In this document: positions 1 through 39,825 of the stretch, in pieces
How positions within the stretch are numbered: position 1 is the stretch's first letter
Layout of the letters: each line of letters starts with the position of its first letter
Assembly: GCA_022710775.1 (NCBI GenBank)
Contig: JAKLGH010000001.1
Coordinates: 134,522 to 198,521 of the forward strand
DNA: 64,000 bases
Source of the DNA: Patescibacteria group bacterium
Lineage (GTDB): Bacteria > Patescibacteriota > Minisyncoccia > Minisyncoccales > UBA5738
Direction of reading: 5' to 3'
Made by a program: the position numbers and the translations under genes
Notes under the pieces: generated by a model
Told to the model about the DNA's origin: nothing
Seen by the model: the letters and a program-made list of their open reading frames with translations, nothing else
The model's database searches: none

Positions 1-1966
1 TTGTTTTGTTCAAAAACACTCGTTTCTTCATATTTCATTATCGCAAGATATTGTTTTCCATGTTCATTTTGCAATATTACGCAAGAATTGTCTTTTTCTT
101 TATTTATATCCCAGCCAGCCGCTAGCGATGAATTTTCAAAATTCAATTTTAATTTTCCCAGTTTGTTTTGCGGCTTTTGAGTTAAATAATTTCTAACGAC
201 ATCATAGTCTTTAACGACTTCAAAAACCTTAACTTTATCGAGGATTTCTGTAAAATTTCCATCAATAGAATATTTCGCTTTAACTCTCCAATATTTCAAA
301 ATTTGCCCCGCAAAAAGCGCGTCGTCAAGCCAAGCCTTGATCGCAATCTTGCTTTCGTCTTTTTGATAATCTCCTTTCTCGATTTTTAGAACTTCGTCCG
401 CCCCCTTAATAAATTTTTTAGATAAATCCTCAATGTCATTGCAGATCATTTTCAACAATGCTTCGTGCGGCGTCTGGGCGTTCTTAATAATGTCTTGCTT
501 TGCCTTGTTATTATCCTTAAAATTTTCACGAAATAAAACGCCTTCTTTGTCCCAATCATCTTGCCCGTCCAAAACTTCAAACAAATCAGAAAGCTGGACT
601 GCCCGCGGAACTTTTGCTTCACCGCTGTTTTTATCTTCATTGAAAATTTTTGCTTTTATCAATTTTTCTTTTAAATTGCCGAAATTACCAAAATATTTTC
701 CGGAGATTGTGTTAATTGCCTTGTCCGACCAATAGATATTTTCAAAATTATCCAAATTCAAAAGATAATCTGTAAAGGCTTTGACGGTTTCTTTATCTTT
801 TCCACCCGTAAAATATTTGTCGCCAAGATTTTTTGCTTTTGTTAAAACATCATTAAGTTCATCGTTATCTTTTATGGTTTTTAAAAAATCTTTTTTTTCT
901 CCGCAACCAATTTGCTTGAATAAGCTTTTAAATTTGGGAAGGTTATTTTTGGTTTGCTGATAATACAGATTAACCAAATAATTCAGGTTGCCAACTTTTG
1001 AATTGTAGGAATCAATCTCTGATTGAGACAAACAATTTACAAAATTTGCTAAGGCAAAGCTAGCTTTATCATTCTTAATATCATAAGCCGAAATAAATTC
1101 GGTTTTTTTATCCGTTCCATCCCATTTTGGATTTCTTAATCTTAATTCTTTGCCGGCATTTTGAAGTTCTGTAAAAACTTTATCATATTCATCTTTATTT
1201 TTTTATAAGATAATAGATTGTCAACAAATTTAGGCAAATTTTCATCCACAATACGGCTCGCCACCGCAGTCGCTTTTTCTTCGGTAGAATAGTAGTTCTC
1301 TCTATTTTTATTAAATCCGCCAAAATAGGTAAAAAAGCTCCTCATTTTTTCCAGTGCCTTTTCTATTTTTTCCTTATTGGCTTCATTATTTTTCACCAAA
1401 ACCTTTACTTCCGGAATTTTTAAATTATCAAAATAAGCCGGATCAACCGATAATTTATTTTTTACATAAGCTAAAATACCCGCTTCTGTTAAAACTTTAT
1501 AACCGTTTTCTTTCAAGAAATCATTGTTTTTATCGTTTTTTCCTGCGACACTTTTAAACTTTTTTCCTGCGACTATATAAAGTTTATCGAATTCTTTTCG
1601 CAGTTTCTTTTCTTCATCTTGGAGCGGTTTATCTATTTTTTTTCGTATTTCTTTGTCCTGTTCGGCTTTTTGTTTTTCGTATAACTTAAAATATTCAGAA
1701 AAATCAATTTCTTTTGCCTTATCACTTTCAAGAGCTTCGGTAATAAATTCCCCGTGTATTTTATCAAAAACCGGCTTTAAAATCTGGTAAGCATCCTCTA
1801 TTTCCTGGTCTGCAAAAAAAGTGCGTAAATTTTCATCATATCTTAAATTAGCAGCCATATTTTCCCTTGTTTTTCCAATCGGCTTGAGCTCGAACCTCAA
1901 AGTTTTTGCCAGCGAATATTGATGCGTAAAATTATCATAAATTGTTTTTGTTTTTTTGTTTTCCAT
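1..1966 (-). CDS. cas12a: Cas12a (Cpf1) type V-A CRISPR effector, N-terminal ~655 codons; the gene continues past the window start; apparent 1-bp deletion frameshift in an A-run (coding strand) near 1197-1204
   Basis: ORF 1142..1966 starts MENKKTKTIYDNFTHQYSLAKTLRFELKPIGKT.. and contains ..RIVDENLPKF.., matching the conserved Cas12a N-terminus (FnCas12a ..KYSLSKTLRFELIPQGKT.., RIVDDNLPKF). After a frame change in the A7 tract the minus strand stays open to position 1 and encodes ..RNYLTQKPQNKLGKLKLNFENSSLAAGWDINKEKDNSCVILQNEHGKQYLAIMKYEE.. (cf. Fn ..[56 protein letters not shown]..). Confidence 0.85.
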
Positions 1967-2425
1967 GTTTGATCTGTTAATTTATTTGCCAAAAAGGGAC
2001 GACGGTTGTCGCCCAATGAAAACGCTTACCAAACGGTTAAGCAAATTGGAACCGTCGCCCCTCTTTATCAAAAAACCACCCGGTTTTTTACAAAAAAGAA
2101 GCGAATTAACGCTTTTGAAAGCATTTTCATTGGCTGCGACTTATTTATGTTCCCATGTTGATAAAAAAAAGTCAAATTTTATCGCTCTCTCTCATAAAAG
2201 CCAACCAACCAATTTTTTCCTTCCCCGAAAGAACAGCCTCTTAAAAAACCGGCAGAAGATTTACTTTTATTGGATTTTTGGTACAGGGGTCTAACCCCTG
2301 TACCACTAAAAATAATCTTTGGCCTCTCCATCTCCTCTTTCTTTACCCTGTTCGTCATCCCCGCCCTCTTCGCCCAGTTCTTAAAAGAGGAAAAGTAGCA
2401 AACTGGCCGTTGTTCCAGCCAAAAC

Positions 2426-2455
2426 AAAACCGCCCTTATCGGGCGGTTTTGTTTT
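2426..2455. terminator. bidirectional rho-independent terminator (ccgccc-ttat-gggcgg flanked by A-run and T-run)
   Basis: aaaacaaaaccgcccttatcgggcggttttgtttt; lies just downstream of the CAP-domain gene on the minus strand. Confidence 0.7.
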
Positions 2456-2499: not shown

Positions 2500-3681
2500 C
2501 TATAGGTCGTCGAGACATTCATTATATTCGCGAACCTGGGCGTTGTATTCGTCCGCGCTTTCGCGGTATCGGGCGTAGATATTTTTTTGATCCGCCACTT
2601 TTTGGTTGTAATTCTTCACTTCTTCGTTTATTTGGTCGATCAAAATGTTCAGAGCCTCATTTACCTCCGCGGCTTCGCTGTACCGTCCGTAACCCTGAAG
2701 CTCTTCGATCCGGACCTTTAATTCTCCGGCCTCTTGTTTCATCGAGTCGATCGCCTGCGACATCAGCGCCAGACCAGCCTCTATGTCCTCCAGCTCGGCT
2801 TTCAGGCTATCGACCCTGTTGGCAAGATCCTCGTTTGGAGCAAAGCACGCCGATGAAGGCGTGCCGAAAAATTGAACCGCCAGCCAGGTATTATGGCCCT
2901 CAAACATCCCGTAGCCGACAGCCGCGCCGATCTCCTGAAAATTATCGCTCAAAATATTGTTGCGGTGACCCGGACTTTTCATCCAGCCGGAAACCAGATC
3001 GGCATCGCCGATAAAATTTCCTTGGGCGAGATTTTCCCCGGAAACCAGGCTGTCATAACCGGCTTCGTCCAAAAAGTGGTTCATCTTCAACCCTTCCGGT
3101 GATTCGTGGGCGAAATACTGCTTTGAGAACATATCCCGCACGCGGTATTCCGCCGCACGATCCAGCTTGGCGCTTTCTTTAAGCTCGCTGCCGGCGCCCA
3201 GAAACGAGATCCGCTCACGGTTGGTAAGCTCGATAACGCCAGCCGAACTAAGTCCGGCGCCTTCTTCTGTTTCCTGGTTTCCGCCGTCTGTCTGTTTAAA
3301 ACCGCCATCGCCGGTTTTTACCGGTGAACCTTCCGTTATAATTTCTGGCTTTAATGCTGTTTCCGGATTTTTCCTTTCGGTTTCCGGCTCCGCTTTTATC
3401 GCGCCTCGCTGGGCATCCGCGATCTTTTTTTCGACCTCAATTTTGAGCGCGGGAACCGCTTCGTCCAGATTAAGATCAATGGGGTTAAGTTCTTTGAACT
3501 TTTCAACGGAATGTTTGGTTTCAGCAATTTTCCTTTCAAGCGCGTCTTTCTTTTTTTCAAAAAACCCCGCGATAAGACCCGGGTCGGTTATGCCGGAAAA
3601 ATGGCCGCGTTCCAAATAGATCCCGCAAACCAAAATCGCGATCGCGGAATAAAATAAAAAGATTTTTCGATACGATAACAT
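2500..3681 (-). CDS. secreted/membrane-anchored CAP (SCP/PR1, YkwD-like) domain protein with C-terminal coiled coil; start chosen at internal Met (MLSYRKIFLF.. signal anchor), ORF track extends to 3846
   Basis: CAP-domain motifs ..GHRNNILSDNFQEIGAAVGYG.. and ..GYDSLVSGENLAQGNF..; N-terminal hydrophobic segment; C-terminal heptad-like ELKVRIEELQ region. Confidence 0.75.
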   Translation of the reverse strand: MLSYRKIFLFYSAIAILVCGIYLERGHFSGITDPGLIAGFFEKKKDALERKIAETKHSVEKFKELNPIDLNLDEAVPALKIEVEKKIADAQRGAIKAEPETERKNPETALKPEIITEGSPVKTGDGGFKQTDGGNQETEEGAGLSSAGVIELTNRERISFLGAGSELKESAKLDRAAEYRVRDMFSKQYFAHESPEGLKMNHFLDEAGYDSLVSGENLAQGNFIGDADLVSGWMKSPGHRNNILSDNFQEIGAAVGYGMFEGHNTWLAVQFFGTPSSACFAPNEDLANRVDSLKAELEDIEAGLALMSQAIDSMKQEAGELKVRIEELQGYGRYSEAAEVNEALNILIDQINEEVKNYNQKVADQKNIYARYRESADEYNAQVREYNECLDDL

Positions 3682-7030: not shown

Positions 7031-7053
7031 AAAGGGATGCTGTTCATCCCTTT
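7031..7053. terminator. rho-independent terminator (aaagggatg-ctgtt-catcccttt)
   Basis: hairpin plus T-run on the minus strand directly after the out-of-frame PGF-CTERM stop at 7052-7054. Confidence 0.6.
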
Positions 7054-7224
7054 ATTGCCGGCGGCGAAACGCGATTAGCGCAACCGCCAAAAGTCCCGAA
7101 ATTGCGAAGACGGCTTCAAATCCCGGCTCCGATGGCACATCTTCCTCGCCTGCCTTATTAGCAGCAGGCGCGGCCGCCGGGGCAGAATGCTCTTGGGCAG
7201 TCTGCGCTGGAGCGGCTCCGCTTA
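7052..7224 (-). other. out-of-frame C-terminal extension encoding a linker plus PGF-CTERM-like sorting signal (..PSEPGFEAVFAISGLLAVALIAFRRRQ*); joins the SPFH gene if one A is added to the A6 run (T-run 7229-7234 on the plus strand)
   Basis: Minus-strand frame with codons at 7052..7222 is open. It reads ..KKRVSGAAPAQTAQEHSAPAAAPAANKAGEEDVPSEPGFEAVFAISGLLAVALIAFRRRQ and ends in a PGF motif + hydrophobic helix + RRR, the archaeosortase-type PGF-CTERM architecture. Inserting one A gives ..AAELLKKRVSGAAP.. continuous with the SPFH ORF. Confidence 0.55.
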
Positions 7225-8037
7225 CCCGTTTTTTAGGAGCTCTGCCGCATTCAGCATCATCCCGTTGCCGCCGCCGCCAATGATCACGGTGTTCGGATTG
7301 GAAGCAATGGCCTCTACATACTTGTACTGGACCAACGTCGGGGTGATAGAATTGGCAACCATCTGATTAGCCTTTGCCTGAGCCTCGGCAGCGGATAGTA
7401 TCTTCAAATTCTCCTGTTGCTGAACTAGGACAGAGAACTTCATTGTCTCGACTTCCTGGCCTCTCTTAATCTTGGCCTCAATAGCCTTAACAACTTCATC
7501 CGGCAAGACAACTCCGCGGATCAAGACCTGGTCAAGTATAATACCTTCTTTGACCAAAGTTGGATACTCCTGCAGCCGCTTCTGCACATCGGCTTGGATT
7601 TCGGAAGCCTTTCCGGTATAGATATCTTCCGCCGTCCAACGCTTGATCTCGTCGCGCAACACATACATGAAGATCGGCGTGATCAATGTGTCAAAGTAGC
7701 TACCCGACACATTCTTGTATATCCCAACCGAAGACCCAGGTTTGATCCGATATATAATGGATACATCAGGCGTGACCGAAAGCCCTTCCTTGGTCAGGGT
7801 ACCTTCAATCTTTGTATATTCATGCGAAAGCTGTTTTAGCTCGAACGGTATCACATGACCCCAGGGTGCAATGTAATTCCAGCCTGACGGTAAAGGCTTG
7901 TCTTCCACCGTTCCCAGTTTGTAATATACACCCTCGTAACCGGGTTCGATGATCTCGACCGTCGCCATCACCACAAAAGCACCCAGTATTACTAGTATAC
8001 CTAGCAAACTGGCTGTTCCTCTTCCTCCAAGTGACAT
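7222..8037 (-). CDS. SPFH/band-7 (prohibitin/HflC-like) family protein; annotated stop probably caused by a homopolymer indel
   Basis: N-terminal TM (LLGILVILGAFVVMA) followed by an SPFH domain (..VSIIYRIKPGS.., ..AEAQAKANQMVA.., coiled region). Confidence 0.85.
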   Translation of the reverse strand: MSLGGRGTASLLGILVILGAFVVMATVEIIEPGYEGVYYKLGTVEDKPLPSGWNYIAPWGHVIPFELKQLSHEYTKIEGTLTKEGLSVTPDVSIIYRIKPGSSVGIYKNVSGSYFDTLITPIFMYVLRDEIKRWTAEDIYTGKASEIQADVQKRLQEYPTLVKEGIILDQVLIRGVVLPDEVVKAIEAKIKRGQEVETMKFSVLVQQQENLKILSAAEAQAKANQMVANSITPTLVQYKYVEAIASNPNTVIIGGGGNGMMLNAAELLKNG

Positions 8038-31096: not shown

Positions 31097-31888
31097 TCAT
31101 CGACCGGTTTTTGGTAGCAGAGCCGGAGGCTGTCGGGACGGACCAGCCGGAAACGGTCCCATATCATCGATCCGGCGGATGCCCAGCGCTTCAACGGTAT
31201 CGCCGTGGCGGGGTCCGAAAACAACAACGACATCGTCAACGGAAAAATCGGCGCCGTAAGGCATTTTTGTCCGTTTGGCTAAAACGGTCAATAAGGTCTC
31301 TCCGGCGCGGTTGCGGATCGTAAATCCCTCCTGGGTAAATCCTAAAATTTTTCCGACATGGATATCGTTGAACCGCGGCCGGTCCAGCTCGCGGTACATG
31401 CCGGCACAGCACAAACGGCCATTATATTTTTCGTAATTGCTAAGGTTGTTATGGATCGGCGTTTTAGCTACAGCGAACCCTCCGATCAAAACAACCAAGA
31501 CAATGGCCAGGGCCGAATAAAGAAGAGGCCGGCGGTAAGCGAAGGAATAACGGCGGACCAGGATTTCCAGAACAACCAGGAAAAGAGCAGTCAGCAGAAT
31601 CAGAAGCCAAGGCAATGAAAAAAGGAACACGAACATTCCGTGAAAACCAAAAGCCGGAATAAACCAGGCTCCGTTTCTTTGAAGGGTAAAAACAATCAAA
31701 CTTGCGAAATAAAGCGCGAACAACCCAAGAACGATCGACCCGATCACGGCTAAAACCGCTCGCAGGATAAATTGCCATTTTGGCCGCATCTTGATCATAC
31801 CGCTTCGCACTGCTTGCATCACGCTTTCATTGATCGGCAGCTGGTTTTTTTGGCTATTTTGATTGTTCATAGGTTGGATCGATTTCAT
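31097..31888 (-). CDS. membrane protein, putative anti-sigma factor cotranscribed with the ECF sigma gene
   Basis: overlaps the sigma factor gene by ~35 nt; three TM helices. Confidence 0.5.
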   Translation of the reverse strand: MKSIQPMNNQNSQKNQLPINESVMQAVRSGMIKMRPKWQFILRAVLAVIGSIVLGLFALYFASLIVFTLQRNGAWFIPAFGFHGMFVFLFSLPWLLILLTALFLVVLEILVRRYSFAYRRPLLYSALAIVLVVLIGGFAVAKTPIHNNLSNYEKYNGRLCCAGMYRELDRPRFNDIHVGKILGFTQEGFTIRNRAGETLLTVLAKRTKMPYGADFSVDDVVVVFGPRHGDTVEALGIRRIDDMGPFPAGPSRQPPALLPKTGR

Positions 31889-32423
31889 TGACCTTTTTTT
31901 TAAGAATTGCTTTGCCTCGCGCCAATCTCACTCCTACCGTCGAAGGCGGAATGTGGAGAATCTCGGATATCTCCGCGTAATTCAGATTTTCAAAATAATA
32001 AAGGACGAGAGGTTCGCGATATTTTGCGCCGATCTTATCCAAACATTTTTCGAGCATGACGCGAAGGCTATTATTGATCGCCTCGCTATCGGCGGAATCC
32101 TTGGCAGCCGGATGCGGAAAAAGCAGATCAAAATCAAAGAATAAGATCTTTTCCGTCTTTTTTTTCTTGATCGCGTTGATGAATTCATTATGCGCGATCC
32201 GGTATATCCAGGAAGAGAATTTTTTTTGGGCATCAAAACTTTTTATATTAATATAAGCCTTGATGAAAACTTCTTGGACAATATCGTCGGCATCATCTTT
32301 AAAAAGAAATCTTGCGGCATAGCGTTTGAGTTTCTTTTCGTATCTTTCGATAAGGATGTCAAACGATTTTATATCTCCGTCCTGTACGCGCGCGGCAACC
32401 TCTTCATCTGTAGCTTCATCCAT
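31854..32423 (-). CDS. ECF-type sigma-70 family RNA polymerase sigma factor
   Basis: region 2 (..FIKAYINIKSFD..FSSWIYRIAHNEFIN..) and region 4 HTH (..NLNYAEISEILHIPPSTVGVRLARGK..). Confidence 0.85.
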   Translation of the reverse strand: MDEATDEEVAARVQDGDIKSFDILIERYEKKLKRYAARFLFKDDADDIVQEVFIKAYINIKSFDAQKKFSSWIYRIAHNEFINAIKKKKTEKILFFDFDLLFPHPAAKDSADSEAINNSLRVMLEKCLDKIGAKYREPLVLYYFENLNYAEISEILHIPPSTVGVRLARGKAILKKKVNEIDPTYEQSK

Positions 32424-37430: not shown

Positions 37431-38894
37431 TTATGTCAAACAAAAATCCCCGGTTTTCTCCAAGGGATTATGCAAAAACTTTTGGCCGCTTCGTTCTCCG
37501 ACCGAGACGACCGAAACCGGAACATCCAAGCCTTCTGTTGATTCAAGGAAGGAAACGTAATTTCTGGCCTCCATCGGCAGATCTTTGAACTCTTTTGCCG
37601 CTCCGATCGGTTTTTTCCAGCCCGGAAATAGGCGGTACTCCAGGGGCCGGCACCCAAACAAAACTTCGGCTAAACCAGCGCGATCTTCCCCTTTTTTGCA
37701 AGGCTTAAACGCTTCCAAGCGCGCGCCGCCGGAACATGGCTGCCATTCAAAGAACCGGTCGACCAGATCCATCCGCTCTCCTTGGTAACAATACGCCACG
37801 CATATTTTTACCCTATTCAGTTCTGACAAGCGGTCCAGATTGGTAAGAGCCAAAGAATCGATTCCGCGGTTCGCGGCTATGCCATAGCGCGCAGCCACCA
37901 AATCTAGCCAGCCGGCTCTGAATTTTCCCTGCCAGGGCCTTGATGAGCCATGAGCGTCAAGCAAGTTTTGCGGCAAGCCGGATTCCTCGGTGACGAACGG
38001 CCCAAACCCGTGCCGCGTGGCATATGCCCGCAATATCCCGATTGTAATCATCTTTCTGCTTGGCATGTGCTCCAAAACCATTTTACGGGCGGTTTTGGCG
38101 GTCGTGCATGTCTTGGTGACATGGGGCAAAAAACCCCAGACCGGATCAAGCAACGCCCCCTGGGTTCCCTCAAAAAGCACGTATTCTGCCTGCTTTATGC
38201 TCAGAAAATAATCCCTGGCTGGTTCTAGCAGATGGCCATATTCCACCCGGAATCGCTGGCACTGTTCCAATATCCGTTTTTTGGGCATCCAGCGCCGGTA
38301 TTCGGCCAGGATGGCGGCAATTCTCCGGTCCTGTTTATTGGCATCGGCAATTGCCTGGGCCGCGGCTAATTTCTGTTCGTAGTGCCAATCCAGCTTCTGG
38401 CGCAATACTTCTTCGTTCAAGCAATCAATAGCGCGTAAAGCTTGGTCGGCAAAATTTTCCCGGTCGATAACCGCTTCGCCAACTCCCATTCCCACGGATC
38501 CGGGCCGGCTGGCTTTATTGATGGCCAGCGCTTTGACCCGGTTTAGCAGCGTATGCATCGGGGTAACCAGATAGCAGGCGGGATCAATTTTTACGCGCTC
38601 GGCAGCACCAATGACGCCCTTATGTTCGAGTTTTCGCGCCTCGATCACAAAATTCGGGATCTTAAACATCATGCCGCCCGACAAATAGCTATTAACGCCG
38701 GCCTGAAAAGTTGCCGACGAAAACTGGCTGAACGTATGTTCCCGCCCCGATCCATCGATAACCCGATGGCCGCCTTGCGGACCGCCGCTGTCCCTGATTA
38801 CGGTTTTTGCGCCCAATTCGTGGGCCAAATACGCCGTTATCGTACCTTTGCCCTCATCACCGAAACCCAAACCTCTTAATATGATCGCGTACAT
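37431..38894 (-). CDS. adenylosuccinate synthetase (PurA) family protein, divergent
   Basis: P-loop GDEGKGT (PurA QWGDEGKGK); ..GGHRVIDGSG.. (GGHNAGH); ..FEGTQGALLD.. (FEGAQGTLLD); ..ILRAYATRHGFGPFVTEE.. (ILKAYSTRVGAGPFPTEL); ~490 aa. Confidence 0.75.
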   Translation of the reverse strand: MYAIILRGLGFGDEGKGTITAYLAHELGAKTVIRDSGGPQGGHRVIDGSGREHTFSQFSSATFQAGVNSYLSGGMMFKIPNFVIEARKLEHKGVIGAAERVKIDPACYLVTPMHTLLNRVKALAINKASRPGSVGMGVGEAVIDRENFADQALRAIDCLNEEVLRQKLDWHYEQKLAAAQAIADANKQDRRIAAILAEYRRWMPKKRILEQCQRFRVEYGHLLEPARDYFLSIKQAEYVLFEGTQGALLDPVWGFLPHVTKTCTTAKTARKMVLEHMPSRKMITIGILRAYATRHGFGPFVTEESGLPQNLLDAHGSSRPWQGKFRAGWLDLVAARYGIAANRGIDSLALTNLDRLSELNRVKICVAYCYQGERMDLVDRFFEWQPCSGGARLEAFKPCKKGEDRAGLAEVLFGCRPLEYRLFPGWKKPIGAAKEFKDLPMEARNYVSFLESTEGLDVPVSVVSVGERSGQKFLHNPLEKTGDFCLT

Positions 38895-39825
38895 CGTTCC
38901 ACCAGCATTGTTTTCTTTCCCCCTTGTCCGATTTTTTCAGCCATTCGGCAACCCGTAAAAAGGCCGGGCCGCGAGCGCAAAGACTGTCGGAGAGCATGAA
39001 AGACTTATATCCCATCGCCTGAAGCAGGCGGTAATGGCTCAAGTCGCTCAATGCCGGCCTGTCCTGGTATTGCAGCGACATAAACAAGCGCGACGCGGCG
39101 ATCGCTTTCGGATCCGCATCGACGATCCGGTAAAGAGCATCGAGCATTTCGTCCTCTTGCCCGATGTTGATATAAAGGTCGTCGCATGCCGCCAGCAGCC
39201 TTACTTCTCGATTGTATGAAGGATAGATTTCGCGGACAAAATCCAGGCCCTTAGGCGTTTCGATCTTAGCCGCGATTATGGCTTTCGGATCAAGGTCAAA
39301 AACCGACGCGATGTCGCTTTCCTTTTCGACGTACGAAAGCATGAACCGGTGGATTCCCATAGCATTTCCGGCTTCAATGAATTCAGTATCAGCTTTTGTA
39401 AGATAACTATCTAAAATCAGCTCCTCGGTTCTGATATTGGCCGCCTGGCCCTGGCCGATCACTTTGCCCGGCACCGGGTCAACGAAAATCTCGTTGCCGT
39501 CGTAAGCCGCGATATCAAGCCATTCGTCTTCGTGGCGAAACAAAATTTTTGCCGGTAAACCCAATTTGATTATTTTGTGATTCAAAATGATCTGGCCGGC
39601 GGGCGGGAGCGACCAGCGCTCAACGCGCAATTGGCCGCCTTTCAGGTCAAGCCACAATTCTTTGGAACCCGCGGCCGCCAGAACCCGCTTGACGGTTTCT
39701 TGCGGACTCCAGGGCGTGTGGCATCCGATGTTATAGCGAAGCCCACCGATAACCGGCTCTTCAGCCACTGCCTTTATCTGTCTGGCAAAAGGCGCCGGCA
39801 AAGTGGCGTACCACAAATCCATCAC
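38857..39825 (-). CDS. pyruvate kinase-like (PK/HpcH TIM-barrel) protein without the PK C-terminal domain; overlaps the purA-like gene by 38 nt
   Basis: ..RYNIGCHT.. (PK NFSHG); ..WLDLKGGQLRV.. (PK LDTKGPEIRTG); ..IIAAKIETPKGLDFVREI.. (IISKIEN.EGV.N.DEI); ..LLAACDDLYINIG.. (MVARGDLGIEIP). Confidence 0.6.
   Translation of the reverse strand: MMDLWYATLPAPFARQIKAVAEEPVIGGLRYNIGCHTPWSPQETVKRVLAAAGSKELWLDLKGGQLRVERWSLPPAGQIILNHKIIKLGLPAKILFRHEDEWLDIAAYDGNEIFVDPVPGKVIGQGQAANIRTEELILDSYLTKADTEFIEAGNAMGIHRFMLSYVEKESDIASVFDLDPKAIIAAKIETPKGLDFVREIYPSYNREVRLLAACDDLYINIGQEDEMLDALYRIVDADPKAIAASRLFMSLQYQDRPALSDLSHYRLLQAMGYKSFMLSDSLCARGPAFLRVAEWLKKSDKGERKQCWWNDVRDHIKRFGFR

Follow-up and report, generated by a model that had tools for sequence, protein, structure and literature searches.

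A complete type V-A CRISPR-Cas locus on a genomic island of a Patescibacteria genome, with a single-base frameshift in cas12a

A cas12a gene that is interrupted within a run of adenines raises two questions: whether the break is real, and what it means for the CRISPR-Cas system to which the gene belongs. The gene studied here lies at the left edge of a 64-kb stretch of Patescibacteria DNA (contig JAKLGH010000001.1 of assembly GCA_022710775.1, positions 134,522 to 198,521; the whole stretch that was analysed is to be referred to as the window). We find a type V-A system that is new and divergent but of an ordinary kind, carried by a recently acquired island; its effector gene has a genuine single-base frameshift. 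We assign a probability of about three in four to the reading that this frameshift arose by spontaneous deletion of one A from an A8 tract, which would switch off the effector and with it CRISPR RNA (crRNA) maturation and interference.

The cas12a reading frame and the site of the break

The 5′ part of the gene encodes a product of 274 residues, corresponding to WED-I and part of REC1 (Table 1). Of these residues, the first ~257 form the Cas12a N-terminus, and the last 17 (IKMNMIKFLQNFKMPAKN) are out-of-frame read-through. In a profile search this open reading frame (ORF) matches Pfam REC1 (1.2e-25) and NCBIfam TIGR04330 (cas_Cpf1; 6.7e-62, model positions 1-600), and 26 Cas12a sequences in the PDB are also matched (best 6e-43). 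All three agree with the identification as cas12a in a first-pass annotation of this DNA. The gene has 39 % A and encodes 15 % lysine, mostly by AAA codons.

Continuing past the A7 tract requires a -1 shift. Counted down from position 1196, the -1 frame has 398 open codons to position 1, where the first-pass annotation had also seen it open, and the chance of such a frame at the given base composition is ~2e-16. Outside the window it adds 661 codons, through PI, RuvC-I/II/III, and Nuc, before its stop at position 13950 of contig L001 (see below). There are in total 1059 further open codons beyond the break, and the uninterrupted effector frame of a type V-A system is broken here by the -1 frameshift in A7.

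The position of the shift is narrowly defined. In the -1 frame, a TAA overlaps the first A's of the run, which leaves only the stretch from this run to the 0-frame stop for the shift. It is placed in the run itself because the homology to solved Cas12a structures is gapless with one added A. The inserted A gives ..LLSYKKNKDEYDKVFTELQ.. / ..LPKFVDNLLSYKKNKDEYDKVFTELQNAGKEL.., which is colinear with these structures across the junction. The junction stretch of a trans-frame product would be LLSYKKNKDEYDK, and the expected trans-frame peptide is NKDEYDKVFTELQNAGK. The shortfall of one A had been recognized correctly in the first-pass annotation, but the run had been given as 1197-1204; it occupies 1198-1204, with a T at 1197 in the coding strand.

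Repair in silico with one A produces a Cas12a of 1316 residues. It matches Pfam REC1 (3.8e-25), Cpf1_PI-like (9e-25), RuvC_1 (1.9e-67), and NUC (1.9e-8), as well as Cas12a chains in the PDB (best 2.4e-106). Its C-terminal half aligns with FnCas12a (PDB 5MGA; 3.4e-101), including FHCPIT, IDRGE, EDLN, SPV..FFDSR, and DANGAY, and the motifs of the WED-RNase, RuvC, and Nuc sites are intact. The integrity of RuvC in the missing C-terminal part, a check proposed in the first-pass annotation, is thereby established. By the customary residue numbering, the catalytic residues, RuvC D/E/D and the WED RNase His in FHCPIT, are conserved. The nearest database relative is ~44 % identical over the N-terminal 655 residues, and the comparison with solved structures is given as E-values.

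The rest of the type V-A locus

The gene is cut by the edge of the window, not by the end of a contig. An exact look-up of the 274-residue product found 18 public contigs in ENA, JGI, and Logan, the longest of which reach 0.2-1 Mb. ENA ERZ27257455 (L001) and JGI 3300009776 (L002) match the window at 100 % identity over 11 kb, and the two contigs match each other at 100 % over 20.8 kb. A Logan contig from SRR4244739 (L003) is identical to the window across its 6.3 kb.

These public contigs carry the adaptation genes and the array (Table 1), which had been predicted to lie beyond the left edge. The order of the locus is cas12a-cas4-cas1-cas2-leader-array. The end of the repeat forms the canonical Cas12a handle, AAUUUCUAC-UUUU-GUAGAU (UCUAC-UUUU-GUAGA). 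The type V-A CRISPR-Cas locus is therefore complete, and it carries exactly one lesion. On the 5′ side of cas12a there are no array or adaptation genes, also as first described: the 64-kb window has 0 matches to AATTTCTACTTTTGTAGAT at up to three mismatches, and TRF finds no arrays in it. Rfam gives nothing above threshold for the window or for the array, and no tRNAs were found.

Searches with the spacers did not reveal a target. Five spacers gave only chance-level matches to viral contigs, with no protospacer and no protospacer-adjacent motif (PAM). The whole array gave only chance-level matches to phages and plasmids, with no target or PAM information. In a check for self-targeting, the 13 spacers were compared with ~85 kb of host sequence, and only the array itself was matched.

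Table 1. Coordinates of the features discussed in the text. Positions are those of the window unless a contig is named.
Feature	Position	Strand	Description
cas12a 5′ part, frame 0	1142-1966	minus	ATG at 1966, 274 codons, TAA at 1142-1144
A7 tract (T7 on the plus strand)	1198-1204	minus	Codons 255-257; probable site of single-A deletion (A8 to A7)
cas12a continuation, -1 frame	1-1196	minus	Rest of REC1, REC2, start of WED-II; open to the window edge
cas4	L001 13950-14489		Pfam Cas_Cas4, 4.6e-13, near-full model coverage
cas1	L001 14494-15468		Pfam Cas_Cas1, 4.2e-47, near-full model coverage
cas2	L001 15501-15812		Pfam CRISPR_Cas2, 3.9e-16, near-full model coverage
Leader	L001, between cas2 and array		131 nt, AT-rich
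Array	L001 15944-16784		14 identical 36-nt repeats, CTCTAATAGGCATATTCAATTTCTACTTTTGTAGAT; 13 spacers of 25-28 nt; co-oriented with cas12a
5′ region of cas12a, island-borne	1967-2279	minus	Nested inverted repeats; three sense-orientation terminator-like hairpins
Hairpin	2279-2305		Perfect 12-bp stem, 3-nt loop; six bases inside the left island junction
Left 168-bp direct repeat, copy A	2312-2479	plus	94 % identical to copy B
Relic of RND/AcrB-type transporter end in copy A	2312-2398	plus	Last 28 codons and stop
Bidirectional terminator in copy A	2421-2455		
Copy B	L001 16833-17000		Ends the intact RND/AcrB-type transporter gene past the array
CAP-domain gene	2500-3681	minus	Native chromosome, left flank of the island
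SPFH/Band_7 gene, 0-frame	7222-8037	minus	Ends ..CTA AAA AAC GGG TAA; stop at 7222-7224
SPFH heptamer	7228-7234	minus	A_AAA_AAC just before the 0-frame stop
SPFH -1 ORF	7052-7234 region	minus	~57 codons; stop at 7052-7054
Broken cas12a	L008 6001-10016		Two ORFs in different frames (frameshift)
Broken cas12a	L009 6001-10107		In-frame TAA; long canonical array
Broken cas12a	L010 5283-9386		In-frame TGA; long canonical array

The A7 tract in public assemblies

Homopolymers are classic sites of indel errors, and all the available sequences are consensus metagenome contigs. The break could therefore be an artefact of sequencing or assembly, with A8 and an intact cas12a in the true genome, and the first-pass annotation had offered this alternative. 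However, the A7 allele is identical in every public assembly that contains cas12a, and these come from different pipelines and runs (MEGAHIT at ENA, JGI, and per-run Logan assemblies from different runs). The exact 274-residue product is found in three NCBI metagenome-assembled genomes (MAGs) as well (HOX29655.1, HRZ50461.1, and HSA36182.1).

The exact A8 protein is absent from a collection of 15 billion protein sequences, and a junction-spanning query of 178 residues finds only the truncated fragment there. It was considered whether this collection has no proteins longer than 1200 residues. This was rejected, as a protein of 1214 residues from the present genome is found in it. Scans of contigs with an A5-A10 junction pattern are uninformative. 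The pattern does find the window and has no match in metagenome_contigs or genome_contigs, from which it follows that both collections are without the present organism.

Other homopolymers of the DNA do not show the same defect. Within cas12a, two A8 and six other A7 runs read in frame, among them the runs at L001 10324, 10858, and 11069. A scan of the whole window for homopolymer indels that fuse ORFs finds no other genuine case. Its matches at 31894 and 38932 belong to the stretches 31854-31901 and 38857-38937, which were rejected as fusable frameshifts because they are ordinary overlapping genes. In the first, a sigma factor gene overlaps the gene of a downstream membrane protein; in the second, an adenylosuccinate-synthetase-like gene overlaps its upstream neighbor. 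An apparent second case in an SPFH gene is conserved biology (see below). With all of this on the other side, an artefact is very improbable, and we do not retain this explanation.

A candidate programmed -1 frameshift in an SPFH gene

The SPFH/Band_7 gene of the window also has a break, which the first-pass annotation had taken as a parallel error. The -1 frame at this site encodes an Ala/Pro linker and then ..SEPGFEAVFAISGLLAVALIAFRRRQ*, and the tail scanned alone scores 26.7 bits for PGF-CTERM, against a curated cutoff of 24.5 bits. Seventeen SPFH orthologs were found, with 269-316 residues. Their alignments are confined to the SPFH part, 67-82 % of the query, and an in-frame extension is present in 0/17.

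DNA is available for five orthologs, which have 58-82 % amino acid identity to the gene in the window (contigs L011, L031, L032, and L033 are among the sources). The -1 ORF (~57-62 residues) and a PGFE..FA..G..A..RR motif are kept in all five. The heptamer before the 0-frame stop is A_AAA_AAC in four of them and C_CCA_AAC in the fifth. A strong stem-loop is located ~4-8 nt downstream of the heptamer; the sequence of the stem varies among the orthologs, and the stem is kept. The fold of the site has an energy of -35 kcal/mol over 90 nt. An intrinsic terminator lies after the stop of the -1 ORF and not after that of the 0-frame.

A second lesion of the 'one A short' type was rejected here, as the 0-frame of the orthologs ends at this position too and their -1 ORF is conserved. 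From these comparisons, the site looks like a conserved programmed -1 frameshift, which would append a sorting signal of the PGF-CTERM type. This removes the earlier argument for artefacts in this DNA. The site is also an internal positive control, which the cas12a site fails. A literature search found no paper that links frameshifting with Patescibacteria, or SPFH with PGF-CTERM.

The cas12a site lacks the features of a recoding site

The 0-frame at the cas12a site reads UAU AAA AAA AUA (slip-site sequence UAUAAAAAAAUAAAG), with no in-frame X_XXY_YYZ heptamer. The best heptamer, U_AAA_AAA, is non-canonical, and the P-site tRNA would mispair after the shift. The minimum free energy (MFE) of 126 nt around and downstream of the site is -10.2 kcal/mol, compared to -12.5 +/- 2.7 kcal/mol in shuffles (z = +0.86). 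Neither a 3′ stem-loop nor a 5′ Shine-Dalgarno (SD)-like element was found at this site. Homologs of Cas12a, both solved and in databases, have a single frame across the position of the break, with none above 44 % identity for comparison.

The number of A runs in the gene is as expected. Synonymous-codon shuffles of cas12a give 8.8 +/- 1.95 runs of at least seven A's (9 are observed) and 3.15 runs of at least eight (3 observed). The tract has therefore not evolved specially as a hypermutable site, but is one of about nine that are equally slippery. No tract-length polymorphism is seen between the assemblies, which are all A7 as consensus sequences. Efficient transcriptional slippage in bacteria occurs at runs of ~9 or more A/T and at long poly(A) tracts (PMC5009743), and A7 is below this threshold.

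Within the same Cas12a subfamily, three further type V-A loci also have broken effectors (L008, L009, and L010; Table 1). The cas4-cas1-cas2 genes of all three are called at normal length. The three lesions are mutually unrelated, which fits independent inactivation and not a shared recoding mechanism.

Deletion, switch, or split protein

In the reading that we prefer, replication slippage at one of the most mutable sites of cas12a would have removed one A of an A8 tract, at codon 257, the direction of the change being A8 to A7. Translation would stop at residue 274, and the product would have no REC2, PI, WED RNase site, RuvC, or Nuc. Cas12a both processes its own crRNAs and cleaves DNA, and consequently the locus would support neither interference nor crRNA processing in almost every cell. 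The adaptation genes and the array remain intact. Judged from sequence, loss of function of the locus is the probable outcome. As no second lesion has accumulated and nothing else has decayed, the lesion is probably recent, or the island was acquired already broken; the lesion could also be only weakly deleterious. That the locus is degenerating, as the first-pass annotation suggested, is weakly supported: there is one lesion, but the 1059 codons, the catalytic motifs, cas4/1/2, and the 14 identical repeats are intact.

Several points weigh against a simple inactivating deletion. All the copies represent one clonal genotype, with 0 differences over 20.8 kb and identical spacers, and the many assemblies thus demonstrate reproducibility, not evolutionary persistence. 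Consensus contigs hide minority A8 alleles within a sample, and A7 is the consensus state. The loci L008-L010 were chosen for truncated-looking proteins on long contigs and give no frequency. Moreover, an A-rich gene of 4 kb that is otherwise perfect, in a locus with only one lesion and its remainder intact, would also fit a reversible switch. The conserved SPFH site in the same genome would use the same -1 direction and the same tRNA-Lys, and leaky -1 decoding is possible at seven A's.

The A tract would then be a reversible or leaky switch, mostly OFF (A7), with a minority of full-length Cas12a and low or bet-hedged immunity. It could operate by replication slippage to A8 (phase variation), by slippage of RNA polymerase, or by unstimulated -1 ribosomal slippage of tRNA-Lys, and frameshifted genes of endosymbionts with reduced genomes are indeed rescued by transcriptional slippage (PMC5009743). 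However, the tract has the same length in every assembly, it is neither longer nor more frequent than chance predicts, and efficient transcriptional slippage is documented for 9 A/T or long poly(A), not for A7 (PMC5009743). The site also has no stimulatory RNA structure, SD-like element, or canonical heptamer. A switch of this kind is unlikely, and an A7/A8 tract that acts as a functional ON/OFF or leaky Cas12a switch in an ultra-small bacterium, through A8 revertants or -1 slippage of tRNA-Lys, is slightly more doubtful. It is hardly credible that the two parts function as a natural split Cas12a, in which the 274-residue N-fragment and a 1004-residue C-fragment, re-initiated at a TTG (window position 1031), form an active nuclease. 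Both ORFs are called by gene callers, and engineered split Cas12a proteins exist. The two ORFs together would, however, skip residues 258-311 of REC1, and no SD-like sequence precedes the TTG. No homologs have the same split, the other broken ones having unrelated lesions at unrelated positions.

The genomic island and its junctions

The 168-bp repeats enclose 7,177 bp with a GC content of 34.7 %, compared to 48-50 % in the flanks, and the insertion lies between the CAP-domain gene and the RND transporter gene. The content of this segment is only cas12a, cas4, cas1, cas2, the array, and the structured 5′ region, and there is no integrase or transposase among its genes. An empty site is present in a Logan contig from ERR7850082 (L034; 86-94 % nucleotide identity), where the CAP and transporter genes are ~100 bp apart. 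The single 168-bp copy of this contig aligns to both repeats, and the breakpoints are exact to the base. A second empty site, in CAINCQ010000004.1 (L011; 82 % amino acid identity for the transporter and 50 % for CAP), has the same adjacency and no array. The segment is a genomic island, by its empty site, its flanking repeats, and its deviant composition.

There are six coding differences between copies A and B of the repeat. All of them are synonymous, and both copies encode IIFGLSISSFFTLFVIPALFAQFLKEEK*. With only synonymous differences, the copies would have diverged while both were functional, in different genomes. A sister lineage may be the source of the cassette, with the transporter gene as the anchor of the recombination, for which homology-facilitated illegitimate recombination and a Campbell-type single crossover are the candidate mechanisms, and the 3′ end of the transporter gene would have been displaced or duplicated in the process. 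The repeats point to recombination with sister-lineage DNA rather than to a site-specific integrase.

Neither copy stands out as the native one: L011 matches copy A at 5/5 informative coding sites, and L034, the closer relative, shows a 4:5 mosaic. Just before copy B (L001 16816-16826), the repeat's first bases occur once more as an 11-nt copy (AGCCAACAGAG), which may be a recombination footprint or a core site.

The spacers of the array (all 13 within L001 15980-16748) differ in composition. Among the eight leader-proximal spacers (1-8), spacers 1, 4, 5, 7, and 8 are close to the present host in GC content (46-56 %). The leader-distal ones (9-13), at 20-31 %, resemble the island. In this very small sample, the split hints that adaptation continued after transfer into the present lineage.

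The region upstream of cas12a is highly structured. The MFE of 1967-2320 (minus strand) is -118.4 kcal/mol, compared to -82.4 kcal/mol in shuffles (z = -7.06), and the region contains imperfect inverted repeats of 26-28 nt (I1, I2, and I3). It belongs to no Rfam family, and no similar sequence was found in related loci or elsewhere. The hairpin near the left junction is unique in the window and has no match in metagenome and viral collections, and is therefore not a widespread repeat. It had been described in the first-pass annotation with a 10-bp stem at 2281-2305; the hairpin is present, but its coordinates are 2280-2304, or 2279-2305 as a 12-bp stem. The upstream CAP-domain gene was also seen correctly, as was the lack of Cas12a-type repeats in the 460 bp before the start codon. 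What had not been recognized is that this region is an island junction, in which the 3′ end of an RND transporter gene is duplicated.

Host and public annotation

The homologs of the transporter are all from Patescibacteria (Moraniibacteriota, Parcubacteria, Wolfebacteria, and Paceibacterota), and the window encodes an ECF-type sigma factor. Together, these identify the host as a bacterium. It belongs to the Patescibacteria, of Paceibacteria type, with ~48 % GC. NCBI labels two of the MAGs as Candidatus Paceibacterota and one as 'Candidatus Pacearchaeota archaeon', and the latter is probably a mislabel. In public annotation, the two halves of cas12a are 'hypothetical protein' and 'Cas12a', with no mark of a pseudogene.

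Discussion

The original Cpf1 survey reportedly included Cpf1 proteins from Parcubacteria and Peregrinibacteria. The present locus shares with type V-A loci such as that of Francisella novicida (FnCas12a, PDB 5MGA/5NFV) the operon order, the REC1/PI/RuvC/Nuc domains, the catalytic motifs, the repeat end, and the spacer length (25-28 nt). In comparison, its effector ORF has a frameshift at codon 257, identity of the protein to the nearest database relative is only ~44 %, and the locus is on a small island in a genome of the candidate phyla radiation (CPR).

Programmed -1 sites are known in dnaX (A_AAA_AAG) and IS1 (A_AAA_AAC). The cas12a site has the -1 shift on lysine codons in common with them, but it lacks an in-frame X_XXY_YYZ heptamer, a 3′ stem-loop, a 5′ SD element, and conservation, all of which the SPFH gene of the window has. 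Homopolymer contingency loci and poly(A) rescue (PMC5009743) resemble the present case in the frameshift in an A run, the small genome of a host-dependent type, and the correction by one extra A. In contrast to contingency loci, the tract here is only A7, shows no variation in length, and is not enriched over expectation.

Mutants that lose cas gene function can be relieved of the cost that CRISPR immunity carries (Jiang et al. 2013, PMC3784566). As in those mutants, there is a single inactivating mutation in the effector, and the array and the other cas genes are retained, a pattern that the three related type V-A loci share. However, neither a self-targeting spacer nor a beneficial target came up in the present case, with ~85 kb of the genome checked.

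The island resembles others whose flanking direct repeats are copies of a target gene's 3′ end, as it is a low-GC insert with precise empty sites, and the 168-bp duplication keeps the transporter gene intact. It differs from them in having no integrase or transposase, in its target, which is the end of a protein-coding gene, and in its repeats, which are only 94 % identical with synonymous coding differences.

By itself, a divergent Cas12a ortholog that is inactivated by a homopolymer indel is routine. The repaired Cas12a of 1316 residues, together with its repeat, is a new Cas12a ready for testing. The most valuable by-product lies outside the cas12a finding and is the candidate SPFH recoding site. 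If the A tract were indeed a switch, type V-A loci that are mostly silent and fully loaded, with the effector present in a minority, would represent bet-hedged CRISPR immunity. The occupied and empty sites give a clean picture of a CRISPR-Cas cassette that enters a CPR genome without a mobility gene, and the 168-bp repeats are a ready substrate for its precise loss by recombination.

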